The notes: generated by a model not told the origin, from the letters alone. 64,000 bases of DNA from a candidate division WOR-3 bacterium (GCA_011052815.1 DRIG01000095.1:8943-72942), one strand, 5' to 3'. Counted from the stretch's first letter, positions 5,597-59,792 are shown. Translations and numbers: made by a program.

Positions 5597-5670
5597 GCGC
5601 CTGTAGCTCAGTTGGATAGAGCAACGGATTTCTAATCCGTAGGTCGTGGGTTCGAATCCCTCCAGGCGTG
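5597..5670 (+). tRNA. tRNA-Arg (anticodon TCT)
   Basis: Cloverleaf with GCGCCTG/CAGGCGT acceptor stem, TTCGAATCC T-loop, and anticodon loop TTTCTAA. Confidence 0.85.
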
Positions 5671-5675
5671 TATCT

Positions 5676-5749
5676 GCCCCGCTAGCTCAATCTGGCAGAG
5701 CAACGGATTCTTAATCCGTGGGTTGCAGGTTCAAGTCCTGCGCGGGGTA
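5676..5749 (+). tRNA. tRNA-Lys (anticodon CTT)
   Basis: Acceptor GCCCCGC/GCGGGGT, anticodon loop TTCTTAA, T-loop GGTTCAAGTCC. Confidence 0.85.
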
Positions 5750-5759
5750 TATAGAATGT

Positions 5760-5833
5760 GGTGAGTGTAGCTCAACTGGCAGAGCATTGGACTGTGGTTC
5801 CAATGGTTGGGGGTTCAAGTCCCCTCACTCACC
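5760..5833 (+). tRNA. tRNA-His (anticodon GTG) with the extra 5' G-1.
   Basis: G-1 followed by GTGAGTG/CACTCAC acceptor stem and a C discriminator. Anticodon loop CTGTGGT. Confidence 0.85.
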
Positions 5834-10195: not shown

Positions 10196-10221
10196 CTGCT
10201 ACTTACTGAACGGAGACGCTG

Positions 10222-11121: not shown

Positions 11122-11123
11122 CC

Positions 11124-14604: not shown

Positions 14605-16345
14605 ACTATTCATCTTAACACAGATAATCTTATTTGCCGAAGAACTGAATTTCACTGCGTCAGTCAACCGAACCGAAGTGGGGCTTGATGAAGCCGTGGT
14701 TCTGACGGTCTCGGTCGAGGGAAATAATATCGATAAAATTCCTTCACCCCAATTACCTGATCTTCCGGACTTCGACATCGGCGGTACTTCATCTTCACAA
14801 TCAACCAGCATTCAAATAATCAACGGGAAATTCACCAAACAACAGTTAATCAACTTCATCTACACTCTATATCCGAAAAAAATCGGTGAACTGACGATTG
14901 GAATTTGTAAATTGGAATTTCAGGGAAAAACATACACCACCCAACCGATAAAAATAACCGTGATAAAAGGAAAAACAAAACCAGCCCGGCCTCCGTCAGC
15001 AGGGCCGGCCCCTTCAGAGCCACGGGTTCCCATCAGTGAAAATTTGAAACTGCTGGCGAGTGTCAATCGTAAAACCATCTATCTCGGAGAACAGGTCAAT
15101 GTCGAATTCAGCCTCTACAATCGATTGAATTTGAGCAATCTTAATCTCACAGAAACGCCGTCGTTCAGCGGTTTTTGGGTGGAGCCGATCTTTGATGCAA
15201 AAAAGATAAATTTCCAAAAGAAGAGCATCAACGGGAAATTATATGAAGTGTGTCTTTTGAAAAAAGCGGCCCTCTTTCCGATGACGACCGGCAAATTGAA
15301 AATCGGTCCGATGAAAATGGACGCGGAAATAGTACAACCTCCCCGTGACTTCTTCGATTTTTTCGGCAGGGCAAAAGTAGTGCAACTCGAATCTGAGCCA
15401 CTCTATATCACGGTCAAGCCTTTACCGGAAACCGGCAAGCCTGAAGAATTCACCGGCGGTGTCGGTCGATTCTCGATGTCAGCGACACTCGACAGAACAA
15501 CTTCTGAAGCGGCTGAACCGATCACCCTGACCATCAAAATCAAGGGAACGGGCAATATCAGGTTGATCGAAAAACCGAAAATTCCTCCAATTTCAGGAGT
15601 TAAAGTTCTCGACCCGGAAACAAAAGACAATGTCAAGATCGTAAATAACCGGGTAAAGGGCTACAAGGAGTTCCGCTATCCTCTTATTCCCCAGGTTGAC
15701 GGCGAACATCTTATTCCATCGATAAAGATCGCTTATTTCGACCCACGGGACAAAAAATATCACACGATAAAGACCGAACAGCTGACATTCACCGCCACCC
15801 GCACCACTGCCGCCGCCGAAGCGGTGCGAGCGGGCGGTCTTAAAATACTGGGCAGTGACATCAATTACATCAAATCCGACAGGCTGCGTCTGACCGCGCA
15901 AAAATATTCTGCAGATTGGTGGGTGCTTCTAATGTATTTTGCATCGTTGATAATCGTCGGGTTATCCCTGATCTACCGTCGTCATCAAGCAAAACTGCTC
16001 ACTGACCGCGCTTATGCAAGAAAATTACGTGCCAATAAAGAAGTGAGAAGAAAGATAAAGGAAGCGGAACGTTGTTTGGCGAAACAGGAAATCCAAAAGT
16101 TTTACGGACTTTTATCGAAGATCCTTATCGGTTATATCGGCGACCGCTTCAATCTTGACACCCGGATGCTCACCAGAGAGCAGTTGACAGAGGAACTGAT
16201 CAAACGAAATGTAAAAGAAGAACTCGTGAAAAGAATATCTACTGTTATCGAACGATGTGAAACAGTACGTTTTTCACCAGGCGGAGAATATGATGAACCG
16301 ATGGATATGCTGCAGCGAATAAAGGAGATTATCCGTGAATTATAA
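14585..16345 (+). CDS. batD: BatD-like oxygen-tolerance protein.
   Basis: Signal peptide, ~586 aa, C-terminal transmembrane segment followed by a charged tail. Canonical position in the Bat operon. Confidence 0.7.
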   Translation: MWRKIGRLFILTQIILFAEELNFTASVNRTEVGLDEAVVLTVSVEGNNIDKIPSPQLPDLPDFDIGGTSSSQSTSIQIINGKFTKQQLINFIYTLYPKKIGELTIGICKLEFQGKTYTTQPIKITVIKGKTKPARPPSAGPAPSEPRVPISENLKLLASVNRKTIYLGEQVNVEFSLYNRLNLSNLNLTETPSFSGFWVEPIFDAKKINFQKKSINGKLYEVCLLKKAALFPMTTGKLKIGPMKMDAEIVQPPRDFFDFFGRAKVVQLESEPLYITVKPLPETGKPEEFTGGVGRFSMSATLDRTTSEAAEPITLTIKIKGTGNIRLIEKPKIPPISGVKVLDPETKDNVKIVNNRVKGYKEFRYPLIPQVDGEHLIPSIKIAYFDPRDKKYHTIKTEQLTFTATRTTAAAEAVRAGGLKILGSDINYIKSDRLRLTAQKYSADWWVLLMYFASLIIVGLSLIYRRHQAKLLTDRAYARKLRANKEVRRKIKEAERCLAKQEIQKFYGLLSKILIGYIGDRFNLDTRMLTREQLTEELIKRNVKEELVKRISTVIERCETVRFSPGGEYDEPMDMLQRIKEIIREL

Positions 16346-16377
16346 TTATTCGGACAGAAGATATCCGGGAGAGTAAA

Positions 16378-17118
16378 ATGGTTTCAATATTGATTATTCT
16401 GACGGCTCTGAATTCAAACATAACTGCGGCTGATTTATATAACGAAGGCAACAGAGCCTATGAAAAAGGAGATTACAAAACCGCTGTTGAAAAATATGAA
16501 GAAGCCGCCTTGAGGATCAGAAATTCTGATCTTTACTACAATTTGGGAAACAGTTATTTTAAAGCGGGAAATATAGGAAAGGCAATCGTCAACTACCGAA
16601 GGGCATATTTCCTCAATCCCCGGGATGGTGATATAAAACATAACTTGGCGTTTGTAAGAAGATATCGTGTGGATAAAATCAACATCATTGAAAGTCCGAT
16701 AACAAAATTTTTCTCGGCGCTCTTCCACTTTCTGACCATAACTGAAGCGCAAAATCTGGCGGCGTTCTCATTTTTCCTCACCGCTGTTCTGGTTTCACTC
16801 TTTCTGATTATGAGAAAAAAAATCTACGGCTATGCAGCGATGGTCACTGTGATATCATTTTTCTTCTTTTTAATCAACTGGCAGATCTGGCGCCGTGAAT
16901 CGATTTCCTCCGATGCAGTGGTGGTCGTACCGGAAGTCACGGCTTTCAGCGGACCCGGTGATGAATACAAAGAAATTCTTGTAATCCACGACGGTGCTGA
17001 AGTGAAAATCCGGGAGATAAGAAACAATTACGCCCTGGTCCAGCTGCCCGGTGGTATCGGCGGCTGGGTCGACCTCAACGGTTTCGAAAAAATCTTCCCC
17101 CTCCCCACCTCCGATTAA
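16378..17118 (+). CDS. batE: BatE-like TPR + SH3b-domain membrane protein.
   Basis: N-terminal TPRs, a transmembrane segment, and a C-terminal SH3-like beta domain. Last gene of the Bat operon. Confidence 0.6.
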   Translation: MVSILIILTALNSNITAADLYNEGNRAYEKGDYKTAVEKYEEAALRIRNSDLYYNLGNSYFKAGNIGKAIVNYRRAYFLNPRDGDIKHNLAFVRRYRVDKINIIESPITKFFSALFHFLTITEAQNLAAFSFFLTAVLVSLFLIMRKKIYGYAAMVTVISFFFFLINWQIWRRESISSDAVVVVPEVTAFSGPGDEYKEILVIHDGAEVKIREIRNNYALVQLPGGIGGWVDLNGFEKIFPLPTSD

Positions 17119-17659: not shown

Positions 17660-18637
17660 TTACGGCAGTTTGATGATTTTGTCCGCAATCCTCCTGTTTG
17701 CGTTCATAAGAAAATAGACACCCGGCGCCAGGATCCTATCTCTGTTATCTCTTCCATTCCAGGTATAGACAGAGGTCGAACCGTTAACTTTATATGTCGG
17801 CGGCAGAACTTTCACCACCCTTCCGGTCATATCAAAGATCTTCAGGTCTTCGTCATCTCCAACTATATCCCCGGTGTATTGAATCGTTATTTCAGCGATA
17901 TCCGTAAAGGGATTCGGTTGAATCGTAAAACAACCGTTTACGCCCCCTTCCATATTTTCCATAACAGCGGATTCTTCAGCCCGCACGATGATGTTGTCAC
18001 ATTTTGTCGAAGCGGTGTCAGCCATATTGAATACATAAATCCCAAAATACCCATGACTTACACTGTCATTTACAATCGGACACTCCGGAAGCAACTGATC
18101 ATCATAATAAGCCCAGATCGAATCGGCTATCACCGTAAGTTTAAACTTATGCCACGAAGATGTCGCAGGAACACCTCCCGGAATTTCAGAATCAAACCAG
18201 TCTTTCAAAACAACCGGCATACCACCAGAACCGATCAATCCCAACCTCAACCGTCCGTCTGCATCAAAATCCGATACAAAACGGTAATAATAACGGGTAG
18301 TGGGGTTCATCCTGATTGCAATTCCGTTATAGGGCCCAACGACACTACTAACCGTGGTATAAATCCAGGCTTCGACCGAGTAATCGGTCAAGTTTGGAAC
18401 TCCTGAATAGGTTAAACCCGCCATCCCCATATACTCATTTGATATACGTCCTGCCCAGAAATCTCCTCCGGGTGTGGTGGAATCCGCAATCACTCCCATA
18501 CTGTCTCCGATACCGAGGCTGTCCGTAAACCAAGGATGCCAGTCAAGTTGCATATTACCGTCTGTAAAATACTCTTCATAAAGCACCTGACTGAAAAGTA
18601 GACCACCTACCAGGATAAAACCTATTATTCTTTTCAT
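17660..18637 (-). CDS. Secreted protein with a T9SS C-terminal sorting domain.
   Basis: Signal peptide. The C-terminal ~80 aa carry a beta-sandwich pattern ending ...GVYFLMNANRRIADKIIKLP. Confidence 0.55.
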   Translation of the reverse strand: MKRIIGFILVGGLLFSQVLYEEYFTDGNMQLDWHPWFTDSLGIGDSMGVIADSTTPGGDFWAGRISNEYMGMAGLTYSGVPNLTDYSVEAWIYTTVSSVVGPYNGIAIRMNPTTRYYYRFVSDFDADGRLRLGLIGSGGMPVVLKDWFDSEIPGGVPATSSWHKFKLTVIADSIWAYYDDQLLPECPIVNDSVSHGYFGIYVFNMADTASTKCDNIIVRAEESAVMENMEGGVNGCFTIQPNPFTDIAEITIQYTGDIVGDDEDLKIFDMTGRVVKVLPPTYKVNGSTSVYTWNGRDNRDRILAPGVYFLMNANRRIADKIIKLP

Positions 18638-18679
18638 AAATACCTCCTTTTCTTCACCTTCTCGACCCTTTGTAAATAT

Positions 18680-19714
18680 TTAAAATCCTATTGTCACGGA
18701 TATCCTGTGAGTCGAGTCAAGGATGTCCATGTCAACATAAGCATAATCAACAGAAATGTCCCGGGAGCCGATCTTCATCTTCATACCGGCTCCAGCCGTA
18801 AACTTCTGGGTATCATAGTTCACTTTATACCCGCCGCGCAGAAAGAACATGTCAAAAAAGCCGTACTCGCATCCCACCTGAATCTTTTCTTCTCCGTCAT
18901 TCGGATGAATTCCATCCACCGAGACATCTAAATGGTGCTCATCACTCGTGAAAAAACCCTCCTCTTTATCAATGAGATTCAAGGCAAGACCCAACTTGAA
19001 CGCCATCGGTAAAGGAAAAGATTCTGTGGTAAGTCGGGCTTCAACATCAGGATTTCCATTGTAATCGGGCCAGGGGTCGGTCTGAACCACCAGATCATTG
19101 CCTGACAGCTGCATCCTGCCGCCGTAATTAACCAAACACATCCCCAATTTCATTCCCTTAAACGGAGTTTTCAGAATTGTTCCGACATCCAGAGCGCCTG
19201 TCGAGGCGGTTTCATTATGAAGGGTCTGTTGAATATATTTACCTGATAACCCGAGTGAAAGCTGGTTTGACAGAAACAGAGAAACGGTAAATCCGAGCAA
19301 TCCGTCGATATAATCGCAGGAAAGTCCTGTTCCCTCCGGTTCTTCAATCGTCGTCATCTCAAAGCTCGTTGAAAGAAATGAACCCCAAAGTCCGAAATTG
19401 ATTCTGGATGTCGGCAGAATAAAAGTAGCATAATCATAATTAAGATCAGCAAACCATTTGGTATGGCCTCCCAGGATATAAACCTTCTTCAATGCTGCTA
19501 TTCCTGCGGGATTATAGTATATGCCAGAGGGATCGTCCGCCAGAGCGACAAAAGCTCCGCCTCTACCCACAGGCCTTGCACCGAATTCGATCTTCAAGAA
19601 CGGTGCGGCGGTTGTGCCCACCTTATTGAAACCGTAGCCTGCAGCGGCGGTGATCAACAAAATGACATTCATCCATAAACTTCCGACTCTTCTCATCTGT
19701 GTAAAAAATCTCAT
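18680..19714 (-). CDS. PorV/PorQ-family T9SS-associated outer-membrane beta-barrel.
   Basis: Signature GARPVGRGGAFVALADD near the N-terminus. Immediately downstream of a large T9SS cargo gene. Confidence 0.6.
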   Translation of the reverse strand: MRFFTQMRRVGSLWMNVILLITAAAGYGFNKVGTTAAPFLKIEFGARPVGRGGAFVALADDPSGIYYNPAGIAALKKVYILGGHTKWFADLNYDYATFILPTSRINFGLWGSFLSTSFEMTTIEEPEGTGLSCDYIDGLLGFTVSLFLSNQLSLGLSGKYIQQTLHNETASTGALDVGTILKTPFKGMKLGMCLVNYGGRMQLSGNDLVVQTDPWPDYNGNPDVEARLTTESFPLPMAFKLGLALNLIDKEEGFFTSDEHHLDVSVDGIHPNDGEEKIQVGCEYGFFDMFFLRGGYKVNYDTQKFTAGAGMKMKIGSRDISVDYAYVDMDILDSTHRISVTIGF

Positions 19715-19724
19715 AAATCTCTCC

Positions 19725-22442
19725 CTATTTTACGATTATAAACTTACCCTTTGCTTTTGTCTGTTCGTCTGTTTTCACCACGAAGATGTATAGTCCATAA
19801 GCGACTTCAAGCCCGTATTTTGTCCGGAGATCCCAGAATTCATAACTGAGATTATTGTTGTGGTTGATTGTGGTTATATGCTCGCCGGCGATATTGTAAA
19901 TCTGAATTTCACATTCTTCCGGCAGGTTTGTAAACATAATCCGTCGATCATAAGGGGTATTTTCAAATCTTGAGTGAAGAATATAAGGATTGGGAACGAC
20001 CTTTACTGAGTTAAGATCAACAGCATCCGAGTTGATGGACGACGGAACCACTGTGAATTGATACTTTATCTTGGAAGAAAACGGTTTGTAAGTGATAATC
20101 GTGAACTCATCGCCTTCTGACGGAGCGATCGCGGTAGCGGGACCGTTTTGGGTCGCGAAATAAACAGCCTCTCCTTTATTATTCCAGCATCCGATTTGAT
20201 CGACAAACCCATAGCTTACGCCAGTAGGATTAGAATTATAGCCTGCTCCGCCCGGAATAAGATCCCAGCCTTCTGGTCCGAAAAGGGGATTACCGGGGTA
20301 AGCATAAGCATAATCCACAAGCCAGGTCGAATCACTGACATCAATTGGATTAAGGGTATCAGTAATATCATATACCCTGATCGGAATTTGGATCGGCGAG
20401 TAATTACCGCCAAAACCATCATCAATCCGGACTGTAGCAGGGTTGTTGTGATCTACGACAATCCGAAAATCGGCATTGCCACTGATGTAAGTATAGATCG
20501 GACCCATAGAGCCGACATAACCGGTCCACCAGGTGAAAGTACAGGTATCACCGCTCACTTTTGTCCAACCCAGGGATTTCACACCACTCTCAGTATTCAA
20601 GAGAGTCAATCTGAAACCATTCACCACCGGGATATTATCCAGTGATGAATCCGATAATTCCTGTTCTGAAAATATTGTTTCTTGAGCGGTCACGTCAAAG
20701 AGATTAAATGTTGTGGAATCCACCCAGGCCGTATCGACAAAAAGGGAATCATTGAAAGTTATCTCATAGGTATGGCCGAGAATCTCTGAGGGATTCAAAA
20801 TAGTAACAACTGCAAGCCCTTCACACGGACCTCCGATAGGTTCAAGTGTATCACCATTCTGGATATAGGCAGGGTTATAACCGGCTGGAGCGGCAGCAGG
20901 GATGACTGATACGATATTCGCCGCTTCGGGTCTTCCTCTGGGATTTTCATAGGAGGGTTCAAGTGAATCAGGATTTTGATTACCCTTGTCATAAGCCGCA
21001 ACACAATACCAATATTCAATGCCGTTATACACGGTGCTGTCAATAAAAGTATGCTGCAAGCCTGTTTCATTTCCCAGTGACTGATAGGGGAATGCCGGGT
21101 CGGTCCCGTAGATTGAGTCGATTAAATCAAATTGAGCAATGGGAACATAACCGACGACCTCTCCTTTTTCATTGGTTATCTCCTTGCCCCACGTCTTTCC
21201 CTGGTCATCACTTCGGTATATTTTATAACCCTCGAAATCATGTTTACCGCTTATGATATCGACTGATGACTCGGAAGGCTGTGGATTCCAGTAAAGAGTA
21301 ACCCTTTGGTCCCCCGGAATTCCGTAAACTGTAGGTGGAGAAGGAGGCCCGCTTCCCTGAAAATAATTATCCGCCATAATCAAGGCTCTATTCAGATTAT
21401 CGAATAAATCAGAAGAATCGCTGCCGCAGATCACGACAATCGTAAACTGCAGTGTATCACCCGGCGCTATTGTTTTAGGCCCAGACGACACAATATAATT
21501 ATAGGCGCTTGTTGAATCCGGCGGCAATGATTGCACGAACGAAGGATCATCGATATGAATATCATCGCCGTGGAAATAGAGTGAAGAATCGATATTCGGA
21601 TCAGAAGGGTCGGAGATTATTATCGGGTAAAGTCTGTAATCGTCACTCGGTTCATCCTGTTTTCGATAATAATGGAAGTCCGTGATTTCCTGATTAAGAA
21701 ATCCCACACCGATCATTCCAAGTGACTGCCATGGTTCCTGAGGGACACCGTCTGCGTCCCAGTAATAAACAAACGTCACCACGGAATCGCGATATAATCC
21801 GATGTAATCATGCATATCATAATCACAACGGAAATTACCGCGAAATCCTAAATAGAGATCATTGAGGGGAGTATTGCGGGTGTTATAGATCTTAAAATCA
21901 TAAAATATGAAATCCTGGGCGTAAATTCTGCCGTAGGAATAACCGGATTGGTTTACCTGGATACCGAAGACATCCTGATCATTAAAAATACAGAACAAAT
22001 CCTGATCAGAAGTAAACTCTCCCTCAACCTCCTCACCGGTCTCAAGATCGCGTCGGTATGGTCCTGGCCAGAAACTTCCGCTGCCGGTTTCAGGCCAGGT
22101 ATCGACATTGTCAGAGGTCGCGAAAATAGGTGTGCCGTCGGGAGTCGTTACATCGCCCGAGTATAAAGAACCATTTGAGCCCTCAAGCGGCGCCCATTCC
22201 GGAGCGGCAAGATCAAGGAACGACTCGATAACCGTATCGTTGCGCGCCGCAAGAAATCCCAATCCCGGACAATATTGATGCTGAAACGGCGCTGAGTTAG
22301 GCCAATGGAATGCCGGAGTAAAGTAGTGTAGATTCGCAATAAGACCGAAATTAGAGGTTACATTGGACAATTCCCCTTTGTCGGAAACACCGACTGCTTT
22401 GTCGGCTTCAGGATATAACAATAAAAATATGATAAAAATCAT
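19725..22442 (-). CDS. Large (905 aa) secreted protein with a T9SS C-terminal domain.
   Basis: Signal peptide. Ends ...GLYIFVVKTDEQTKAKGKFIIVK. Confidence 0.55.
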   Translation of the reverse strand: MIFIIFLLLYPEADKAVGVSDKGELSNVTSNFGLIANLHYFTPAFHWPNSAPFQHQYCPGLGFLAARNDTVIESFLDLAAPEWAPLEGSNGSLYSGDVTTPDGTPIFATSDNVDTWPETGSGSFWPGPYRRDLETGEEVEGEFTSDQDLFCIFNDQDVFGIQVNQSGYSYGRIYAQDFIFYDFKIYNTRNTPLNDLYLGFRGNFRCDYDMHDYIGLYRDSVVTFVYYWDADGVPQEPWQSLGMIGVGFLNQEITDFHYYRKQDEPSDDYRLYPIIISDPSDPNIDSSLYFHGDDIHIDDPSFVQSLPPDSTSAYNYIVSSGPKTIAPGDTLQFTIVVICGSDSSDLFDNLNRALIMADNYFQGSGPPSPPTVYGIPGDQRVTLYWNPQPSESSVDIISGKHDFEGYKIYRSDDQGKTWGKEITNEKGEVVGYVPIAQFDLIDSIYGTDPAFPYQSLGNETGLQHTFIDSTVYNGIEYWYCVAAYDKGNQNPDSLEPSYENPRGRPEAANIVSVIPAAAPAGYNPAYIQNGDTLEPIGGPCEGLAVVTILNPSEILGHTYEITFNDSLFVDTAWVDSTTFNLFDVTAQETIFSEQELSDSSLDNIPVVNGFRLTLLNTESGVKSLGWTKVSGDTCTFTWWTGYVGSMGPIYTYISGNADFRIVVDHNNPATVRIDDGFGGNYSPIQIPIRVYDITDTLNPIDVSDSTWLVDYAYAYPGNPLFGPEGWDLIPGGAGYNSNPTGVSYGFVDQIGCWNNKGEAVYFATQNGPATAIAPSEGDEFTIITYKPFSSKIKYQFTVVPSSINSDAVDLNSVKVVPNPYILHSRFENTPYDRRIMFTNLPEECEIQIYNIAGEHITTINHNNNLSYEFWDLRTKYGLEVAYGLYIFVVKTDEQTKAKGKFIIVK

Positions 22443-22452
22443 TTTGACTCCT

Positions 22453-24975
22453 TTATTGTAATTTTATTCTCATCCCCGCCTTAACGGCACGACGGGGACC
22501 GACATAAGAAGGATTCATTATGTAGTCCTTTGAACCCATAAGCCCGCCTTCTGACTCGCCTGAATCCCATGGTTCACCACTTCTTGGATAGACATAAAGA
22601 GGATTTTTATGATCTGTCAGATTCGTCCCTTTCACAAAAAATTCCAACACAGTTCCGCCTATTTTGAACCCCTGATATGCAATGGCGTCAAACGAATATT
22701 CCCATCCCATCCTTGCTGAATTCTGTTCGACAACAACACCTTCGCTGATATACGGAGTATACGGCAAACCACTGGCAGCGGTGACATTGAAACTCAATCC
22801 CCCTCCTTGTCCGAAGAGAATTTTAAGATTACTCGACAAGGTGTGTCGGCGGTCAAAATCAAGGAAATATTCTTTCAATCTTTCCGGCATCCCGGTGTAT
22901 ACATCATAAAATCCCTGCATTGCAAAAGAATGATTCCCCCGTGCCACCTGATAGGTATAATTGAAACTGAAACCGAAGTGTGAAACGACCTTCCGATTTA
23001 TCGTAACATCAATACCCTGAACACTGCCGAAATCATCATTTGTATATATGATGTAATCGTAAGGGAAACTTCTCACCTCGGTGGTGGCAAGTAAATTTTT
23101 GATATCTTTGAGGAAGAGTGTAATATCAACACCGTAGATCTGCTGAATCGCATATTTAATTCCAACTTCATATGCCGTGGTCCGTTGCGGTTCGATACGT
23201 GGATTACCGACCAATCCATAACGAGGTATACTTTCGGGGTGGGCGATGTAGTTACCGTTAAAATACATTATCTCATAAGGAGGCATCTGGAAGAAATACC
23301 CATAGGCAAAATGCAACATCGCATTATCCGTAATCGGATGGGACAAGCCGAAGCGCGGGGACAATTGATATTTAGGTTCCACCTCTGTGGACGGAGATGT
23401 GGGGTCTTCAATGTCCTCCCACATAACCGTCTTCGGGAAGCAGTAATCAAAACGTAAACCTAAATTCGCCACTAAAGAACGATGTTCGATTTTATCCTGC
23501 AGGAAAACCGCACCATCCATAGGAGTTCGTTGATAATTTTGATAAACCACCGCCCCTCTCGTAAAAAGTTGCTCACGTTTATCAAGAAAAAAATCATGGT
23601 GATTATGTTCGATCCCCCATTTCAGGTTGTGCACTCTGGCGAAATGAAGAGTGAAATCCATTTTAACGACATACTGCTTCGTCGTTGCGAATTGTCTGTA
23701 TATCGGATATCCGGAAACATAGAATTCAGAATAGTTGTCATATACCGGTTCAATAATGGTATCATCACTTAGACCGGGCACCGCTGTTTCGACGCTGTCT
23801 ACAAGGTATCCGACACGGAGGTTGTAGAAAAACGAACCAGCGGGGGCATGGTTGATTCCGACGATCGCCCGCAAATTCTTCCTGGTGGTTACAAGATAGT
23901 TTTCATAGATATATTTATAACGATGACTATAATTCTGTGTCTCTTCATTTACATATTGTCCGTCAATGAAAAGCTTAAGATTCCCGCCGAATTTCCTGGT
24001 TAATTTACCGTTCAGAGAATAAGAAGATTCGTAGCCGAACGGCAGATACGATTCCTCATTTGAATAGTTGCCGCTGAAGGAAAACTTTAAACGCCGGTCA
24101 AAGGGAATCGGCCCCATAACCGCGGCGTTTATCTCTCCAAGAAACGGAGCATCTAAATATTGAGGGTTATACTCGGAGATGTCCGATGAATCCCGATGGG
24201 CGTCATATGCGGTGCTGTCAAGGCTGTTCATCCAATCTTTTTTTCTGTATGGTGATGGATTGAGCATGAAAGAAGTATATTCAAGATAAGTAGAAATCCT
24301 CTCCCCGCCTTCCGGGGTTACGATGTTAACTACACCACTCATCACATTACCGTATTCGGCATTAAAGGTGCCTGACAGGAGCGACATTTCAGAAATAATA
24401 TTCTTATCAAAAATCGGACTGCTTCCCAGCAGTGGATTCGACACCTCAATACCGTCGATGTAATAAGCGAGCTCCCCGCTTCGTCCCCCACGTATATGAA
24501 GTTCACCGGCGCCGTCGGTCGTCACTCCTCCTTGAAGTACAATCACCTCCAGTGGTTTTTCAACGGGCAAGATATCCATTTCACTGCGTGTTATCCGTGC
24601 CTCTTTGGAAGTCATATCGACCTCAATAATCGGACGCTCCGCGACAACGACAACTGGATTCTCCATCTCAATCACAGTGGTCTGTAATTCGAAATTCAAC
24701 AAGGTGGTTCTATCCGTGTAGACCTGAACCTGCTGTTTAATCTCAGCTCGATATCCAATCATCGAAGCTTCAACCTCATAGGTACCCGGCGGAACATTCA
24801 GGATGAAATAATAACCGTTTTCATCAGTGGCACCTCCGATCCCCAGGTCAGGAATAAAGACATCAACACCGACAAGGGGTTCATTGGTTTCAGCATCCTT
24901 TACTGTTCCACTTATTTTACCTACGGTACCTCCGAAAAGAAAAAGCGGTAATAAGATAAAAATTATTTTGTTCAT
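22453..24975 (-). CDS. TonB-dependent-receptor-like outer-membrane protein with an N-terminal carboxypeptidase-regulatory-like domain. Start revised to the ATG at 24975.
   Basis: After a signal peptide (MNKIIFILLPLFLFGG): a CarbopepD_reg-like domain (GTVKDAETNEPLVGVDVFI...NVPPGTYEV), then a plug-like region (HIRGGRSGE...YYIDGI), then a long beta-barrel. An RBS precedes the internal ATG. Confidence 0.65.
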   Translation of the reverse strand: MNKIIFILLPLFLFGGTVGKISGTVKDAETNEPLVGVDVFIPDLGIGGATDENGYYFILNVPPGTYEVEASMIGYRAEIKQQVQVYTDRTTLLNFELQTTVIEMENPVVVVAERPIIEVDMTSKEARITRSEMDILPVEKPLEVIVLQGGVTTDGAGELHIRGGRSGELAYYIDGIEVSNPLLGSSPIFDKNIISEMSLLSGTFNAEYGNVMSGVVNIVTPEGGERISTYLEYTSFMLNPSPYRKKDWMNSLDSTAYDAHRDSSDISEYNPQYLDAPFLGEINAAVMGPIPFDRRLKFSFSGNYSNEESYLPFGYESSYSLNGKLTRKFGGNLKLFIDGQYVNEETQNYSHRYKYIYENYLVTTRKNLRAIVGINHAPAGSFFYNLRVGYLVDSVETAVPGLSDDTIIEPVYDNYSEFYVSGYPIYRQFATTKQYVVKMDFTLHFARVHNLKWGIEHNHHDFFLDKREQLFTRGAVVYQNYQRTPMDGAVFLQDKIEHRSLVANLGLRFDYCFPKTVMWEDIEDPTSPSTEVEPKYQLSPRFGLSHPITDNAMLHFAYGYFFQMPPYEIMYFNGNYIAHPESIPRYGLVGNPRIEPQRTTAYEVGIKYAIQQIYGVDITLFLKDIKNLLATTEVRSFPYDYIIYTNDDFGSVQGIDVTINRKVVSHFGFSFNYTYQVARGNHSFAMQGFYDVYTGMPERLKEYFLDFDRRHTLSSNLKILFGQGGGLSFNVTAASGLPYTPYISEGVVVEQNSARMGWEYSFDAIAYQGFKIGGTVLEFFVKGTNLTDHKNPLYVYPRSGEPWDSGESEGGLMGSKDYIMNPSYVGPRRAVKAGMRIKLQ

Positions 24976-25109
24976 AATGCTCCTTTGATCTTTGATATTA
25001 ATAAAACCGACACCACAAAGGTGCACGAACGGCCTTTGTATTCTGCAACACATTTTGTTTATTTTATAGGATTTCGTTATTTTTATGTTACCGAATAAAG
25101 CCAACCAGA

Positions 25110-25793
25110 TTATCTTATAAGAACAACTTTCTCGGTTAACCTGTAATTCTCTCCTGATATCCGCACAAAATAAACACCAGCTGGAACCGATCGACCTTTT
25201 TCATCTGTGCCATCCCATGGTATGATCGTTTTCTCGGAAAAACAGGCATCTGTTAATCTTTTGACTGTCCGGCCGTTACTGCTGAGAATTTCCAGTTTAA
25301 AAGTCGACGTCTGCACTCCATCACCCAAATTATAAAACGGCTGAATCTTGATCTCGGTTCTGTTTTGAAAAGGATTCGGTTGAACCATCAACTTGAAAGT
25401 CTCATTGGAAAAACAACAATCAGTCTCTGCTGCGCCGACTACGACCGTCCCCTCTTCATTTACCGCTGTCCAGCCGCTGTGGAACAAAGTCTGTCCGCCG
25501 ATTACATAAAGTTTGCCGCCGACCACTCCGATCCCGAATGTGCTCACTGCTGCGGGCAGTGAAGTACTGGATATCCAGGTATCAGCGGTCGCATCATAGA
25601 CTTCCAGACTGTCTATCTCTCCATTGGTATCTTCGCCACCGACGACATAGACTTTTTCTCCAACCGTAGCCACGCCCAAGAAGCTCCGCGGCGTGGGCAT
25701 AGCCGCTTTTGTTTGCCAGTTAATGCCGAACAACATTGAAGACGACAAACAGCTCAATAAAAATATCATAACAATTCTTTTATTCATCATCAC
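25110..25793 (-). CDS. Small secreted Kelch-repeat protein with a T9SS C-terminal domain.
   Basis: Two Kelch-like motifs (VYVVGG / LYVIGG). Ends KGRSVPAGVYFVRISGENYRLTEKVVLIR. Confidence 0.55.
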   Translation of the reverse strand: MMMNKRIVMIFLLSCLSSSMLFGINWQTKAAMPTPRSFLGVATVGEKVYVVGGEDTNGEIDSLEVYDATADTWISSTSLPAAVSTFGIGVVGGKLYVIGGQTLFHSGWTAVNEEGTVVVGAAETDCCFSNETFKLMVQPNPFQNRTEIKIQPFYNLGDGVQTSTFKLEILSSNGRTVKRLTDACFSEKTIIPWDGTDEKGRSVPAGVYFVRISGENYRLTEKVVLIR

Positions 25794-29671: not shown

Positions 29672-32600
29672 TTATTCTTCATTGGTGATTCTTTTATAGA
29701 GATTGAAGGTCTCAGCAGCAGGAACGGTGTTTAATTCTTCTTTCAAACTTTTCTCCAGACGATGGAACTGTCTTATCGCACCGGTTCGGTTTCCCTGGTT
29801 ATATAAAGCCTCCATCATAATCCGACAGGCTTGTTCATCATTCGCATCAAAAGAAAGAAGTCGGCGTGCAAAAGAGATTGCCTTCTGCCACTCAATCCGT
29901 TCCATACACCTCATCGCCAGCCAGAATAAAATTTCTCTCATTCTTTCTTTCAACTCAAACTGTTTGTCAACAAGGGAACGGGTGTAAAATTCCGGTAAAA
30001 AATCTCCACGGTATAATGCAACCGCTTTATGCGCACGGTCTTCTGCAAGGTGAAGCTTCCCGTGCCGCTTGAAATTCCGCCACTCTTTAACAAGCGATTC
30101 AAACTCCCAGAAGTCCACTTTCAGCAGTTCACGGTTGAGAGAAAGAAAAGGGCCCTTTTGAATAACGATATTGCCGCCGATGACTTTGTTAAGCCGGGCG
30201 AGAATAACCCGAAAATTCGCCTGTGATTTCTTTTTTGCCATATCCGACCAGAGATATGAAATCAAAATTTCCCTGGTGATGCCACCGGTTCGGGGCTGGA
30301 CTAATAACAAAGCCAGCAGTTCCTGTGCTTTTCTGGATTGCCATTCATTTCTGGTGATCTCTTCCAAATCACCGGCTTTTTTTACGGATAAACCACCAAA
30401 GGTGGTTATCTCAACAGAATTTATTCGAAATTCCTTTAGACGCTCATGAATGAGGTGGACGGCATTGTTGAATTTTTTTACTCTAACTTGTTTATAGAGT
30501 TCAGAAATTCTCGGTGTTGCGCGCATTTCAAAAAGAAGTTCTAAACCCTGTAAAAATATCGCCTCACCGCGAGTACCGCCGATTGCAAGTCCGAACCTCA
30601 CAAATATATCAGTAAGCAGTAATACTTCACCGTTTGCGGACAGAATCTCTTTTGCTTTTTCAAAAAGTTTCAATGCCTCACTGCGACGTCCTTTTTTCAA
30701 AAGAACCTGTGCCTTCTGCGCCAAGGCCCTTGCGAACCGTGGATTGAAATGGTGTTTCTCCGCAAATGTCAGTGATTTATTGACGAATTTCAACGCGTGA
30801 TCTATTTCATTTTTCTTTAAATAAATCATACTTTTGTATATCAACATATCACAGCGAGAATTTATCTCAAGTTTCTCCCCATCTATCTGCTTCAAGGCTG
30901 TTTCCGCTCTCTCAACATCATTCAATTCTAAATACAGCCGTGCAAAACTCAACCGGGCGGTTAAGTCAAGTCTTTGATTGCCTATCCTCTTTGCCTTACT
31001 CTCTGCTTTTTCAAAAAATTCTTTAGCCCGCTGGTATTCGCCTTTAACCAAAAAACAGTAACCCATATAAAGCAAATCAACACCAACAAGCTGTTCCTTT
31101 TGCAGCAATTTTGCTCTCTTTAAAGATTCATAAAATCTAATCAATGCCGAATCCACTTTCCCCATCCTCATTTCGACAAGTCCCAGTTGAGAGTAAGAAT
31201 CACCGAGATAAAAAAGGAGATGGTAATCCTCCGCAATCTTTTTCGCCTGCAGCATAAAATCAAACGCTTTATTTAAATCTCCCTTTGACATGGAGATCGA
31301 CCCGAGATACAAAAACACCTTATACCGCGCCTCGGGCGCCTTATCCTGAGGTATTTCTACAGCCAACCTTTTGGCTTCATCCTCTGCTTCCTTTAGCAGA
31401 CCTTTTCTCATCAACAACAGACAATGTTCCGCCAGCAAAGTCCAGTAAAGTCTGTCATTTTTCTTCACCAATGTTATCGCTTTATTTATATCTTCCTCTG
31501 CCTTTGACAGATCCTGAAGCGACAGCCTCTTATGAAAGAGCAGTCGGTAATGTATTCCGGCGTCTTTTCTTAAATTATTAACTTCGAGTTCCAGCGCGTT
31601 TTTTTCAATATCATCGACCTGGAGGGTGCTTTTTCCTGAGAACCAGAAAAGTTGATTTGATAAAGATTTGATTTTCAGTTTTATCTTATCGGCCATCTCT
31701 TTTTTATCCGCTATTCTTTGCGCAACATTCAAGTATCGTTGTGCAGATAAATATTGATAGTCATCGAACAGTCTTCTGGCTGTATTGAATAGATAAACGG
31801 CGAGCCTTTCTGTTTCTTCAGCAGGTTTTATGTCTTTTATAAGATGAAAGGCTATTTCCTCGCTGCTTGCTCTATTTTTTTTCAGAATACGGGCAAGCCT
31901 TCTGTGCAGTCTGCGTCGTTGATCAGAATTCATCTTATTATAAAACAGGCTTCGGATCAGAGGATGGGTGAATTGTTTGGCATTACCGGAATCTTCTATC
32001 AAGCCTGATGCGGAGAGGACATTTAGAGACCTCAGGAATTGCTTGTCGGACAGTGAATTCAATAGTTTACGAAGTATTGGAAGTTCAAATATTTCACCGA
32101 TTACTGCCGCACCCCGAAGGAATTTCAATTCTGAATCGGATAATCTATAAATACGATAACCTATTATACTCTCCACTGTCTCAGGAACAGGAAAGCTTTC
32201 ATAATCTGTTTCGACGAACCAACGATCTTTGGTTTCATCATAGAATATTATGTTCTGACGAACGAATGTCTTAACAATCTCTTTTATGAACAAAGGATTA
32301 CCCCGCGTGACACTGAAAAGCCAGTGTGTAAAAGAACCGGCGAAGGTGCTTCCGAACATTTGATTCAGGATGGTCATTATTTCTCCCCCCGAAAGGCCAG
32401 GAAGATCAAGGTAAGAAATCAGATGTTCATTATTCAATTCATCTATGAATATTTTCAGAAGTTGATTATTATTTTGAGTAGTCATTGTTGCGACTATCAA
32501 TATGGACTTACCGACCATCCTTCTTATAATGTATTTCAGTAACCCGGTTGATTCATCGCCCATCCACTGGATATCGTCCAGAAGCAGAATCAGTGGTTTG

Positions 32601-33067
32601 GAATTGGATAAATTATCAAAAAATGTTTGAAAAGAATAAAAGAACAGACGATTATCAATGGGGTGTTCCAGAGATTGTATCTCTAATGGATAATACCTTT
32701 TCAATTCAGGAATGAGATGAATAAAATAGGGGGCGATCTCTGGATTCAAAAACTTTACAAACCACCATCGGCGGTTTTCCACTTTGAGTAGATGGTCTTT
32801 AACCATCTGAATAAACGGTGAAAAAGGTTTTGTTTCATCCTTCAACACCCTGCCGTATAGAATGTGAATATTGGAAGCATCAACTTCATCAATAAATCGT
32901 TCAAGAAAGGAAGTTTTTCCGACACCGACTTCACCGCGGACAAGGATAAATCGACCGTTATAGTTTAACGTCTCTTCCAGGTGACTCTTTAACCATTTCA
33001 GTTCTTTTTTTCTTCCGACGAACGGTTCATCGACACCTGTGGTTCTAAATAAAAATTCTTTCTTCAT
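29672..33067 (-). CDS. STAND-type AAA ATPase - TPR - C-terminal SARP (OmpR-like winged helix + BTAD) regulator, 1131 aa.
   Basis: Walker A GEVGVGKTS at the N-terminus, then a long TPR region. The C-terminal ~250 aa have an OmpR-type DNA-binding pattern followed by a BTAD-like helical domain. Confidence 0.7.
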   Translation of the reverse strand: MKKEFLFRTTGVDEPFVGRKKELKWLKSHLEETLNYNGRFILVRGEVGVGKTSFLERFIDEVDASNIHILYGRVLKDETKPFSPFIQMVKDHLLKVENRRWWFVKFLNPEIAPYFIHLIPELKRYYPLEIQSLEHPIDNRLFFYSFQTFFDNLSNSKPLILLLDDIQWMGDESTGLLKYIIRRMVGKSILIVATMTTQNNNQLLKIFIDELNNEHLISYLDLPGLSGGEIMTILNQMFGSTFAGSFTHWLFSVTRGNPLFIKEIVKTFVRQNIIFYDETKDRWFVETDYESFPVPETVESIIGYRIYRLSDSELKFLRGAAVIGEIFELPILRKLLNSLSDKQFLRSLNVLSASGLIEDSGNAKQFTHPLIRSLFYNKMNSDQRRRLHRRLARILKKNRASSEEIAFHLIKDIKPAEETERLAVYLFNTARRLFDDYQYLSAQRYLNVAQRIADKKEMADKIKLKIKSLSNQLFWFSGKSTLQVDDIEKNALELEVNNLRKDAGIHYRLLFHKRLSLQDLSKAEEDINKAITLVKKNDRLYWTLLAEHCLLLMRKGLLKEAEDEAKRLAVEIPQDKAPEARYKVFLYLGSISMSKGDLNKAFDFMLQAKKIAEDYHLLFYLGDSYSQLGLVEMRMGKVDSALIRFYESLKRAKLLQKEQLVGVDLLYMGYCFLVKGEYQRAKEFFEKAESKAKRIGNQRLDLTARLSFARLYLELNDVERAETALKQIDGEKLEINSRCDMLIYKSMIYLKKNEIDHALKFVNKSLTFAEKHHFNPRFARALAQKAQVLLKKGRRSEALKLFEKAKEILSANGEVLLLTDIFVRFGLAIGGTRGEAIFLQGLELLFEMRATPRISELYKQVRVKKFNNAVHLIHERLKEFRINSVEITTFGGLSVKKAGDLEEITRNEWQSRKAQELLALLLVQPRTGGITREILISYLWSDMAKKKSQANFRVILARLNKVIGGNIVIQKGPFLSLNRELLKVDFWEFESLVKEWRNFKRHGKLHLAEDRAHKAVALYRGDFLPEFYTRSLVDKQFELKERMREILFWLAMRCMERIEWQKAISFARRLLSFDANDEQACRIMMEALYNQGNRTGAIRQFHRLEKSLKEELNTVPAAETFNLYKRITNEE

Positions 33068-56667: not shown

Positions 56668-56955
56668 TTACATACCGGGAATAGGAAAACCTGTAATCGA
56701 TCGGAAACTTTCCCGGGTCGCTTCAGTTACCTTGCTCTTTGCGTCATTCAGGGCGGCGAGAATAAGGTCTTCGAGCATTGAAACGTCTTTTTCTTCGATT
56801 ATCTGCGGATCGATCTTTACAGAAAGGACATTCTGTTCACCGTCCATCTCGATCTTCACCATACCGCCACCGGCGCTTCCCTCGATTCTTATCTTCCTCA
56901 ACTCTTCCAGCAGTTTTGCCTGCAATTTCTGGGCTTCCTTTAAAATATCTTTCAT
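56668..56955 (-). CDS. ybaB: Nucleoid-associated protein YbaB/EbfC.
   Basis: 95 aa, conserved YbaB family sequence, immediately downstream of dnaX. Confidence 0.85.
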   Translation of the reverse strand: MKDILKEAQKLQAKLLEELRKIRIEGSAGGGMVKIEMDGEQNVLSVKIDPQIIEEKDVSMLEDLILAALNDAKSKVTEATRESFRSITGFPIPGM

Positions 56956-58403
56956 CGTATCTCCTCTCCGTCAAAGAGAACCTTTATTGATTTCACCAGG
57001 TCATTATCAACCTTTTGTTTTTCAACGACCTCGACATGCAGTTTGACATCAGAGCCGAAGAGTTCCTGGAGTACGGCTTCAATCTTTTTACGATGATCAA
57101 TCAACTGTTTTTTTGAAAATTCATTATCCACCAGAACAGTCACCCGATCATCAATCTTTTTTATTTCTGCTTTATGAATAATCCCCGCCAGTTTCGGACT
57201 TATCCTCTGTAGTTTTTTGAATATCCTGTCTCCGGGATCGTTGCTGTTCACATCCCCGTTCTCTTCAGAACCGGAATTCCTGATTTTCTTCGCTTCGTTC
57301 TCTCTTGTTCCACGTCCGGTTTCGGAAAAGATCAAAACCAACTGACTGAAGAGCAGTTCCAGAGCAATTCGAATATTGACCGACCTCCTGATGAGCTCTT
57401 CAAACCGCAGGCAGACTTCAAGAATATTTATAATGTCCGACTTGCTTAAACTCATCTTTCTCAAAAGTTCAATCTCCTCGGCATTCAGCTCTACAAATTC
57501 ATCAGGGATATTAATTCTAAAGAGAAGTGCTGCTCGTGTAAAATTGGTGAAGCCACGATAAATTTCAAGTGGATCGGCTCCGTCTTCTATACCTTTATTC
57601 AACAAAAGAATAACCTGTTTTAAATCACCGGCGACGACTCCCTTTAGTATATCAAAATAAAAGCTGCTGCTTAGGAATCCTATCAGCTGAAAAACATCTT
57701 TCTCAGTAATTTCACCTTCTACAAACGACGCCAGTTGCTCAAGAATACTTTCACCGTCCCGGATACTGCCGTCCGCGCGAATGGCGATGTAGTGTAGAGC
57801 ATTCTCCGTAATCTTAAGATTCTCCTTCCCGGCGATCAAAGCCAAGCGGGAACTGATTTCCTTAAGGGACAGTCTTTTAAAGACGAATCTCTGACAGCGC
57901 GACAAGATGGTCGCCGGAACCTTCATCGGATTTGTGGTGGCGAAAATGAAGATCACCTTTGGAGGCGGTTCTTCAAGGGTTTTCAATAAGGCGTTAAACG
58001 CCTCCTGGGTCAACATATGAACCTCATCGATGATATAAATCTTATATCGCCCGTGAATCGGTGAATATTTCACCCCTTCTCTTAAATTCCGAATCTCCTC
58101 AATACCGCGGTTTGAAGCGCCGTCGATTTCCACAACATCGATACTTCTGCTCAACGTGATCTCACGACAGGAAGTACATTTCTGACAGGGTTCGAGTGTA
58201 GGACCATTCTCGCAATTCAAGCTTTTTGCAAGAATTCTCGCTGTCGTCGTCTTGCCGACGCCGCGCGGACCCGCGAAGAGAAAGGCATGGCCTATTCTAC
58301 CGCTTCTGATCGCACCCTTCAACGAAAAAACAATATGGTCCTGTCCTGTCAACTCATCAAAATTCTGTGGTCGGTACTTCAATGAAATAACACGATGTGC
58401 CAT
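56952..58403 (-). CDS. dnaX: DNA polymerase III subunit gamma/tau.
   Basis: Walker A GPRGVGKTT, zinc module CQKCTSC, clamp-loader domains. Confidence 0.9.
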   Translation of the reverse strand: MAHRVISLKYRPQNFDELTGQDHIVFSLKGAIRSGRIGHAFLFAGPRGVGKTTTARILAKSLNCENGPTLEPCQKCTSCREITLSRSIDVVEIDGASNRGIEEIRNLREGVKYSPIHGRYKIYIIDEVHMLTQEAFNALLKTLEEPPPKVIFIFATTNPMKVPATILSRCQRFVFKRLSLKEISSRLALIAGKENLKITENALHYIAIRADGSIRDGESILEQLASFVEGEITEKDVFQLIGFLSSSFYFDILKGVVAGDLKQVILLLNKGIEDGADPLEIYRGFTNFTRAALLFRINIPDEFVELNAEEIELLRKMSLSKSDIINILEVCLRFEELIRRSVNIRIALELLFSQLVLIFSETGRGTRENEAKKIRNSGSEENGDVNSNDPGDRIFKKLQRISPKLAGIIHKAEIKKIDDRVTVLVDNEFSKKQLIDHRKKIEAVLQELFGSDVKLHVEVVEKQKVDNDLVKSIKVLFDGEEIR

Positions 58404-58498
58404 ATTTACCTCATTAAATGGATATATTCAAATTCTCTTTTAACATCACATTCAACCGTAAATTTGCAGATAACCCTGTTTTGAAATTCAGATTGAAT

Positions 58499-58787
58499 CG
58501 GTCGTGCACTCCCTTCGCCAGTCTCTCCAGGAACAGAAAGGCGAAGAGCTCAGACCAGGTTTCCTTATGACCGGCCCATTTCTACTTACCGCTGCTTCTT
58601 TCCAGACCTGACGGGGTTTGTAGCTGGTACCATCATAAGACCCAATCCTCAACACTCTTCAACTCCTCACTGTCGCCCCTGAAAAGTACTGTCTCAAATG
58701 GAGCCTTCAGTCCCGCATAAGCGGATTTCGGGTCATCCGCCAAACGGCGGATTCAAGGCACCGCTAACTCCCCACTTAGCACGACCG
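58499..58787 (-). ncRNA. ffs: Signal recognition particle RNA, long (Bacillus-type) form with an Alu domain.
   Basis: The reverse complement begins GGUCGUGCUAAGUGGGGAGUUAGCGGUGCC (5' Alu motif). It contains the domain IV motif GUCAGGUCUGGAAAGAAGCAGC and ends GUGCACGACC, which pairs with the 5' end. It sits immediately upstream of dnaX, as in many bacteria. No ORF in the region. Confidence 0.75.
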
Positions 58788-58790
58788 AAT

Positions 58791-59792
58791 CTATCGGACA
58801 AAATCCAATTTGTCAAATAAAAATTCGTTCGGTTTTATACCGCAGGTGCCGATTCCCAGCTTAACCAGTTTTGTCTGCAGATTCTCCACATTCTTTAAAT
58901 TTATCTCAGCAAGTCTCTGATACTCAGGTGTTCGGATATTATGCACCAATTCCGACTCATGAGGCCAGTTATTGATCTTTATTATAACTTTCTTACAGAT
59001 TTCCGGATTCCTCGTTATATAACTTAATGTAGCATCCAGTGCATTTTTTAATCGTATCCCTGCCAGTTTATTCTCTTCCTTGACATAACTCTTGCGCATT
59101 ACAATCGCCGTATAGGGAAAAGACGACGAGATGATGTACATAGAAATAAGACCCTCAAAAAGTATCTTGTTTCCTTGATACAGCATATATCCTCGATACG
59201 GATCGATCAGATACACGGCATCCACTTCTTTATTCGTAAATGCGGTCGCAAGCTGTTCCGGTTCCAGCAGCACTTTTTTCACTCTGGTGATCTTCTCCTT
59301 TTCGGCAAGCTGGGAAAGAATCAAATCAACAATATACTCATCCTGTTTCAGATATCCCAATCTTTTCCCTTTGAGATGACCCAACCTTCTAATCTTCGAT
59401 TTCTCGGGAACTATTATCGCGTCCAGAAGCTTACCCGACCTCAGTTCAAGAGAAGCACACACCTTCACCGTATCACCGTCGATCGCCGGGGAGAGCAGAA
59501 GGTTATACCACGGTACCGCGACAATGTCATAAAGGCCGTCTTTTAACCCCTGCAGGGGGTCTCCTGTAACCTCGACGAATTCCGGTTCGATCTTTTCGAT
59601 GACAAAATACTGTCGTGACGTATCTTCTTCAGCGACATAAAAAGGTACTGAAGCAAATGATTTATCAACACCGATCTTTATCTGTGAGGGTAATGACTCT
59701 TTGTATTGGGGATAACCGACGACGAAGAGCAAAGCGATGATACCCAAAAAGATGAGAACATTCAATATTCTTTCTCTCGCCTTTATACTCAT
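58791..59792 (-). CDS. Membrane-anchored periplasmic substrate-binding-like protein (NMT1/SsuA-like fold suspected).
   Basis: N-terminal transmembrane anchor. IKIGVDKSFASVPFYVA pattern. Confidence 0.4.
   Translation of the reverse strand: MSIKARERILNVLIFLGIIALLFVVGYPQYKESLPSQIKIGVDKSFASVPFYVAEEDTSRQYFVIEKIEPEFVEVTGDPLQGLKDGLYDIVAVPWYNLLLSPAIDGDTVKVCASLELRSGKLLDAIIVPEKSKIRRLGHLKGKRLGYLKQDEYIVDLILSQLAEKEKITRVKKVLLEPEQLATAFTNKEVDAVYLIDPYRGYMLYQGNKILFEGLISMYIISSSFPYTAIVMRKSYVKEENKLAGIRLKNALDATLSYITRNPEICKKVIIKINNWPHESELVHNIRTPEYQRLAEINLKNVENLQTKLVKLGIGTCGIKPNEFLFDKLDFVR

Follow-up and report, generated by a model that had tools for sequence, protein, structure and literature searches.

The minus strand of a 64,000-nucleotide stretch of DNA from a candidate division WOR-3 bacterium (the whole stretch analysed, hereafter the window) carries at 58499-58787 the ffs gene for a 289-nt large (Alu-domain) SRP RNA, as seen from its match to RF01854, its fold and its WOR-3 orthologues. 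The feature that sets this RNA apart is an extra hairpin at the junction of helices 3 and 4 of the Alu domain and, judging from sequence comparison, we put the probability that the locus codes for a functional large SRP RNA carrying a real extra helix at about 0.88. The locus is the ffs of a WOR-3 (Caldifarciminota) bacterium and a member of a known family detectable by any Rfam pipeline. The gene itself is a routine housekeeping RNA and, apart from the distribution of the long form and the hairpin, the finding is modest. The hairpin may be a new element on this otherwise ordinary gene, and an earlier description is possible: no mention of it was found in the SRP RNA literature, in a search that stopped short of Rosenblad et al. 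2009 and the SRPDB alignments.

The RNA lies in a 387-nt gap without ORFs (58404-58790) that is bounded by the start of dnaX and the stop codon of the ORF upstream. Overlapping ffs are two small ORFs (58488-58655 on the minus strand and 58418-58570 on the plus strand), which are mechanical calls only. An Rfam scan of the whole window matched RF01854 (Bacteria_large_SRP) to 58502-58784 on the minus strand with 131.2 bits, relative to a gathering score of 60, and an E value of 2.6e-20, and this was the sole non-tRNA match in the scan. The match spans model positions 1-256 of 256, is not truncated and is the best in clan CL00003, a lower-scoring overlapping clan match having been discarded. The RNA falls outside RF00169, the 4.5S family of ~100 nt that consists of the helix 5/8 hairpin only and has no Alu domain. 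The Rfam alignment has a mean posterior of 0.85 and contains several non-canonical helix 5 positions. Terminal pairing widens the Rfam extent to 58499-58787, the ends of the RNA being placed by pairing alone. The 289-nt strand has an MFE of -118.6 kcal/mol versus -95.6 +/- 5.3 for 200 shuffles, none of which (0/200) was as good. The initial annotation had proposed a long-form Alu-domain SRP RNA, and the large model being best in its clan over its full length bears this out; the motifs that it had listed, GUGCUAAGUGGGGAGUUAGCGGUGCC (58757-58782) and GUCAGGUCUGGAAAGAAGCAGC (58591-58612), each occur once, and the terminal pairing of CGGUCGUGC with GCACGACCG is present. Neither of the outcomes that it had named as refuting, a match to the small SRP model only or a failure to fold, was seen in the Rfam scan or in the folding energy (z -4.35).

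Ten loci were fetched for eight DnaX homologues, nine of them with sufficient upstream sequence, and a large SRP RNA of 276-286 nt (101-120 bits) is present in 9/9 of these WOR-3 assemblies, which include the closed genomes CP070834.1 and CP070686.1. The gene order binding protein, ffs, dnaX, ybaB is common to all nine. An RNAalifold consensus of the window RNA and eight relatives contains 94 pairs, 17 of them with compensatory changes, that run through helix 5 and domain IV. The identity of the window RNA to any non-WOR-3 relative in the set is at most ~58%. In the gene calls of a public protein collection, hypothetical ORFs that lack a Pfam match are placed over ffs at three of the relatives' loci (L202 932-1309 on the minus strand, L209 1097-1288 and L211 1128-1469 on the plus strand), and these are likely spurious proteins.

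With RNA position n defined as window coordinate 58788 - n, all of the Bacillus-type secondary-structure elements are present on the minus strand, specifically helix 1, helices 2-4 with their pseudoknot, a long helix 5 and domain IV; as in B. subtilis scRNA, the L3/L4 pseudoknot has five pairs and there is no helix 6. Helix 1, a prokaryote-specific element, is formed by nine base pairs between CGGUCGUGC (58779-58787, RNA 1-9) and GCACGACCG (58499-58507, RNA 281-289) and closes both ends. These terminal sequences are conserved in 8/9 WOR-3 RNAs, with two gapped positions in L207, and at one pair of helix 1 U-A is replaced by U-G among the WOR-3 RNAs. The Alu 5' domain (58708-58777), as parsed by comparison with large SRP RNAs from Bacillaceae and elsewhere, contains helices 2, 3 and 4 and the extra hairpin, and its helices are 91-98% paired with compensatory changes. 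Helix 2 (AAGU/ACUG) pairs RNA 11-14 with 77-80. Helix 3 (GGGGAGUU-AGC-GGUGCCUU) pairs RNA 15-22 with 26-33 around a loop containing AGCGG (23-27), and is followed by a 22-nt junction segment (RNA 34-55) and then by helix 4 (CCCG.../...CGGG, RNA 56-59 with 73-76), whose loop is AAUCCGCUUAU. Loop L3 (AGCGG, 58761-58765) is the 5' strand of the pseudoknot and loop L4 (CCGCU, 58720-58724, RNA 64-68) the 3' strand, and five Watson-Crick pairs, AGCGG/CCGCU, are possible between them. The crystal structure of the B. subtilis Alu domain contains a five-pair loop-loop pseudoknot, helix t1 (Kempf et al. 2014, PMC4231752), and compensatory variants of the same contact occur in other RNAs of the set as GGCGG/CCGCC (L004 and L005) and UGCGG/CCGCA (L046). 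The MFE structure instead pairs CCGC with GCGG inside the helix 4 loop; this was rejected because these bases form the L3/L4 pseudoknot in B. subtilis and covary with L3. The Rfam pairing of the 5' arm of the hairpin with the 3' strand of helix 4 was likewise rejected on the comparative parse.

Helix 5 is long. The core of domain IV (helix 8), GUCAGGUCUGGAAAGAAGCAGC, occupies RNA 176-197 and aligns to the RF01854 consensus with high posterior. Its GGAA tetraloop lies at 58600-58603 and is closed by U-A versus C-G in the consensus, with U-A in six and C-G in three of the WOR-3 RNAs. The domain IV core with its GNRA tetraloop is shared with E. coli-type 4.5S RNA (RF00169), the small form of which is also located upstream of dnaX in many phyla; in contrast, 4.5S RNA is ~100 nt and has neither an Alu domain nor helix 1, while the window RNA is 289 nt.

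The extra element G-A-[AUCCGCC GUUU GGCGGAU]-G-A occupies 58733-58754 on the minus strand, with the hairpin proper at 58735-58752, and the 7-bp hairpin by itself folds at -12.4 kcal/mol. Positions at the junction were mapped on the basis of Kempf et al. 2014 (PMC4231752) and a Bacillaceae locus with the junction GUA (L047). By this mapping U33-G34 of the window RNA correspond to U34-G35 of B. subtilis and A55 to A37, with A35-G54 standing in place of U36. Thus the U-G-U-A linker of Bacillus becomes U-G-A-[7-bp hairpin]-G-A, and where B. subtilis scRNA has a bulged U36 the window RNA has a 20-nt A-[7-bp hairpin]-G. The short (3-4 nt) UGU(A) linker is therefore altered at its third position only, the U, the G and the closing A being kept, and we treat this deviation as a variant and not as grounds for exclusion because the model score is still far above threshold. 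According to Kempf et al. 2014 (PMC4231752), no part of the Alu core is more conserved than the 'UGU' of this linker, which in human SRP serves as the central site for SRP9/14 binding. The eukaryotic 7SL Alu domain shares with the window RNA the core of helices 2-5, the loop-loop contact and the UG of the UGU linker (PMC4231752), but its linker is a U-turn bound by SRP9/14 whereas the window RNA has a helix there.

The RF01854 consensus has no helix at the helix 3/helix 4 junction, and the Rfam alignment sets 28 unaligned nt of the window RNA against nine model positions within the model's helix 4. Covariance models without the extra helix misalign helix 4 in hairpin-bearing lineages. An alignment of eight large SRP RNAs shows a ~20-nt insertion right after helix 3 that is common to the window RNA and L034. 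The junction was parsed in 30 RNAs, in which the ordinary junctions read GUA, GUAA, GAA, GUAG, CUA, GGA or UUA. The arrangement G-A-hairpin-G-A is found in 13 sequences, namely the window RNA, L034 and eleven metagenome RNAs; among the parsed insert RNAs one has the hairpin one position earlier and two lack the G-A flanks.

Evidence that the hairpin is maintained as a helix comes from paired changes across these sequences. In a MAFFT alignment of 13 sequences, which was not fitted to the structure, 7/7 pairs of the extra helix are changed on both sides and 89% of cells are paired, and the whole Alu structure is 95.7% paired versus 41-53% when the partners are slid. A model-fitted alignment of 35 sequences, biased toward the structure by construction, again has 7/7 pairs changed on both sides with 87% of cells paired (24 insert-bearing sequences), and the whole structure is 91.4% paired versus 41-58% when the partners are slid. 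A further MAFFT alignment of 21 Alu domains was left out of the pair counts, four of its WOR-3 hairpins being one column off register. In about one third to one half of the insert-bearing sequences the outermost pair of the hairpin is not formed. The stems are 4-8 bp long and are capped by generic stable loops (UUCG, GAAA, CUUG, GUUU), in keeping with a constraint that acts on structure and not on sequence.

The hairpin is present in 9/9 of the WOR-3 relatives, with a different stem sequence in each. It is absent from two other 'WOR-3'/Stahlbacteria genomes in the set (L004 and L005); these RNAs and that of Ca. Scalindua (L031) resemble the window RNA in being non-Firmicute large forms located upstream of dnaX, but differ from it in having ordinary 3-nt junctions (CUA, GGA and GUA, respectively) and no hairpin. 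Further examples came from a metagenome scan whose pattern was anchored on the two conserved loops and demanded a spacing of 20-50 nt. This gave 120 loci, of which an nhmmer profile retained 15 as real large SRP RNAs and removed ~105 as non-SRP; five of the 15, rechecked in Rfam, score 141-160 bits. Note that the frequency of the insert among these metagenome examples is uninformative because the pattern itself demanded the 20-50-nt spacing. A tight group of eight metagenome RNAs adjoins a DnaX whose named homologues (59-72% identity) are Phycisphaerae or Planctomycetota. One named locus (L213, GCA_035357775.1), whose DnaX is also in NCBI as 'Planctomycetes bacterium ADurb.Bin126', codes for a large SRP RNA of 142.8 bits with the hairpin GA-CUCCC GAAA GGGAU-GA, and at a second named Phycisphaerae locus (L212) a sigma-factor gene, and not ffs, lies upstream of dnaX. 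The occurrences in the WOR-3 clade and in Planctomycetota-type sequences thus place the extra helix in at least two phyla. A neighbor-joining tree of the full-length RNAs is too weakly resolved to count the origins of the insert.

As a member of its family the RNA would be expected to bind Ffh through domain IV, and the particle to target ribosome-nascent-chain complexes to FtsY, while the Alu domain would reach the elongation-factor site of the ribosome and slow elongation via RNA contacts alone. The hairpin would leave the fold at the position of U36, the lone bulged U in B. subtilis, and exit at this sole exposed nucleotide would explain why the insert is tolerated. Tandem sheared pairs may form between the G-A/G-A flanks, and the hairpin could stack on these, in which case the three-way junction would become a four-way one. 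At roughly even odds, we favor the view that the hairpin is an expansion helix which is tolerated, is constrained in its pairing and makes the junction stiffer, with no sequence-specific role, a reading to which its variable length and generic loops point. Helices 9-12 of fungal SRP RNA are located in the helix 5 or S-domain region of eukaryotic RNAs and so, unlike the hairpin described here, not at the helix 3/helix 4 junction of a bacterial Alu domain. They nevertheless offer a precedent for lineage-specific helices on a conserved scaffold, being listed as four additional helices with positions not given (PMC11431127).

A distinctly less likely reading is that the hairpin acts as an RNA substitute for SRP9/14, in which case it would point from the UGU site to the small ribosomal subunit. 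Elongation arrest would be strengthened, either through a restored contact that is missing from B. subtilis SRP or through clamping of the Alu domain in its closed fold, as SRP9/14 does. We know of no SRP9/14-like protein in bacteria. The insertion point coincides with the UGU linker that forms the central SRP9/14 site of human SRP, and modelling led Kempf et al. to conclude that, when the protein is absent, the Alu domain of bacteria is detached from the small subunit (PMC4231752). The helix is also kept by compensatory change across the WOR-3 clade and in Planctomycetota. However, the 4-8 bp range in length and the unrelated generic tetraloops would be unexpected of a specific ribosome contact and favor the expansion helix. 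We consider it more doubtful still that two unrelated phyla, probably outer-membraned (represented by the WOR-3/Caldifarciminota clade and Phycisphaerae-type Planctomycetota), added an RNA helix at the SRP9/14 site as a surrogate that clamps the fold or contacts the 30S subunit; if true, SRP elongation arrest would have a third kind of architecture in addition to the protein-assisted one of eukaryotes and the Bacillus-type RNA-only one.

Proteins commonly recognize helices that have tandem G-A pairs at their flanks, and this general property is one of two points in favor of an improbable alternative, in which the hairpin serves to bind a protein particular to the lineage (HU/HBsu-like or other) and the Alu domain is a protein-containing bacterial one. 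The other is that HBsu has been reported to bind the B. subtilis Alu domain, as that report is cited in a later paper (Nakamura 1999, cited in PMC4231752). Against such a platform, the stem and loop have no conserved sequence, neither the window nor the nine WOR-3 loci have a candidate gene linked to ffs, and the literature describes prokaryotic Alu domains as protein-free, a specific SRP role of HBsu being one that 'could not be established' (PMC4231752). A search of the 64-kb window for Ffh, FtsY and HU found none. HU is close to universal in bacteria. Given this near-ubiquity, the protein-free Alu domains and the unestablished role of HBsu, the HBsu-like partner proposed in the initial annotation is a weak suggestion.

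The 5' arm of the hairpin, AAUCCGCC (58735-58742), nearly copies part of the helix 4 loop, AAUCCGCU (58720-58727), a resemblance seen only in the window RNA, L206 and L150 that could reflect local duplication or alternative pairing. A closed/open Alu switch, in which this arm would pair with L3 (GCGG) in place of the L4 loop, strikes us as very improbable. AAUCCGC is indeed identical in the arm and the loop of these three RNAs, but most hairpins are unrelated in sequence, and the 7-bp stem, at -12.4 kcal/mol, should outcompete a 4-bp loop contact; the similarity is explained by the shared ancestry of the three related sequences. Finally, although the source contig is metagenome-assembled, there is next to no chance that misassembly, pseudogene formation or fortuitous similarity around a 4.5S core accounts for the long form or the insert, given the same architecture in nine independent assemblies, two of them closed genomes, the full-length model match at E 2.6e-20 and the compensatory changes all along the molecule.

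Whatever its role, the covarying hairpin provides structural biologists with a naturally occurring variant of the UGU junction, where conservation of the Alu core is highest. The hairpin could be grafted into B. subtilis scRNA to probe the role of the junction in RNA-only elongation arrest.

The host had been described as a T9SS-bearing, candidate-phylum lineage, and both parts of this description hold. Five window proteins are identical to, or fall in 90%-identity clusters with, 'candidate division WOR-3 bacterium' proteins HEC79285-HEC79330. The organism-named DnaX homologues at 58-70% identity are all WOR-3 or unclassified '[bacterium]' MAGs, the WOR-3 ones including RBG_13_43_14, 4484_100 and the two closed genomes. 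Taxid 2052148 is now Caldifarciminota, and the NCBI lineage places this phylum directly under Pseudomonadati; it gives no support to the FCB-group (Fibrobacterota-Chlorobiota-Bacteroidota) membership that the initial annotation had proposed. In regards to the T9SS, the window codes for a PorV/PorQ-family outer-membrane protein (18680-19714; NF033709, 162 bits with a cutoff of 90), and TIGR04183, the T9SS C-terminal sorting domain, is above cutoff on four window proteins. The T9SS and PorV genes point to a host with an outer membrane, and in this the T9SS-bearing candidate-phylum bacterium would differ from B. subtilis. The PorV/PorQ-family gene is part of a cluster (17660-25793) in which it is flanked by genes for three T9SS-sorting-domain proteins and a TonB-dependent-receptor-like protein with CarboxypepD_reg.

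Several other loci of the window are of note in their own right. A co-directional run at 9197-17118 codes for a MoxR AAA_3 ATPase, a DUF58 protein and BatA/BatD-like VWA and TPR proteins, and resembles the Bacteroides aerotolerance (bat) operon. A gene for a deoxyhypusine-synthase-family protein (5871-7034, minus strand; PF01916, 229 bits) adjoins three tRNA genes at 5597-5833. The minus strand also codes for two large signalling-type proteins, one of 1131 aa (29672-33067) with a region like a TOMM kinase/cyclase fusion and a SARP/TPR-like C-terminus, and the other a TPR-CHAT protein of 936 aa (1487-4297).

The minus-strand order around ffs is a TPR protein, an NMT1/SsuA-like substrate-binding protein (58791-59792), ffs, dnaX and ybaB, and the convergent neighbor codes for a PAD_porph protein with a T9SS C-terminal sorting domain. 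The dnaX gene (56952-58403; DNA polymerase III gamma/tau, TIGR02397, 431 bits) lies directly downstream of ffs and is followed by ybaB/ebfC (56668-56955; PF02575 and TIGR00103). Location of ffs directly upstream of dnaX-ybaB is also seen at Bacillaceae loci (L047, L050 and L057), while Firmicute RNAs differ from the window RNA in sequence, with ~50% identity. The stop codon of the binding-protein gene is 3 nt before the 5' end of the RNA, and in all eight distinct WOR-3 loci examined the RNA begins 2-4 nt past this stop codon. From this spacing we infer either a promoter inside the upstream coding sequence or co-transcription followed by cutting of the RNA from the longer transcript. A weak promoter-like sequence, TTGACA-17-TAGATT (58788-58816, minus strand), overlaps the last codons and the stop of the upstream gene. 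It was rejected as promoter evidence, since it overlaps coding sequence and is no better than chance (one site found versus 1.2 expected); in the relatives the corresponding stretch is coding and the hexamers are kept only loosely. No intrinsic terminator was found at the ffs locus.

A DnaX scan of genome contigs gave 80 loci among the matches listed, these listed relatives having no more than 53% identity and coming from many phyla, and location of ffs upstream of dnaX is widespread among them. Among these listed matches, the large form occurs upstream of dnaX in Bacilli, Clostridia, Ca. Scalindua, Stahlbacteria/WOR-3 and several MAGs, and the small form in Syntrophales/Smithella, Verrucomicrobiota, Planctomycetaceae/Pirellulales, Bdellovibrionales, Spirochaetales and Thermodesulfovibrionales; no SRP RNA was found near dnaX at the listed loci of Bacteroidota, Ignavibacteria, Fibrobacteria and Cloacimonadota. 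Long bacterial SRP RNAs have been described as limited to Firmicutes and Thermotogae (PMC4231752, whose wording is 'except in Thermotogae'; PMC11431127, 2024). The long form is the rule in the WOR-3 clade and is found as well in Stahlbacteria, Ca. Scalindua and Phycisphaerae-type Planctomycetota, and its presence outside the published distribution reflects an ageing literature rather than a surprise. This wider distribution is relevant to the question of whether bacteria had the Alu domain ancestrally, with the 4.5S form arising by repeated loss.

Differences in form also occur within phyla. The Planctomycetota loci compared (L031, L036, L037, L118 and L213) include three forms, with a large RNA lacking the insert in Ca. 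Scalindua, a small RNA in Planctomycetaceae/Pirellulales and a large RNA with the insert in the Phycisphaerae type. A Selenomonas MAG (L026 2724-2894) codes for a 171-nt RNA, a shortened long form with a match (97 bits) to the large-SRP model in its entirety, and a locus of Mitsuokella, which is related to Selenomonas, codes for a small SRP RNA (L020 1609-1708). In addition, one Verrucomicrobiota locus has a 751-nt MISL RNA (L055 1635-2385, minus strand; RF03079, 581 bits) just upstream of the small SRP RNA and dnaX.
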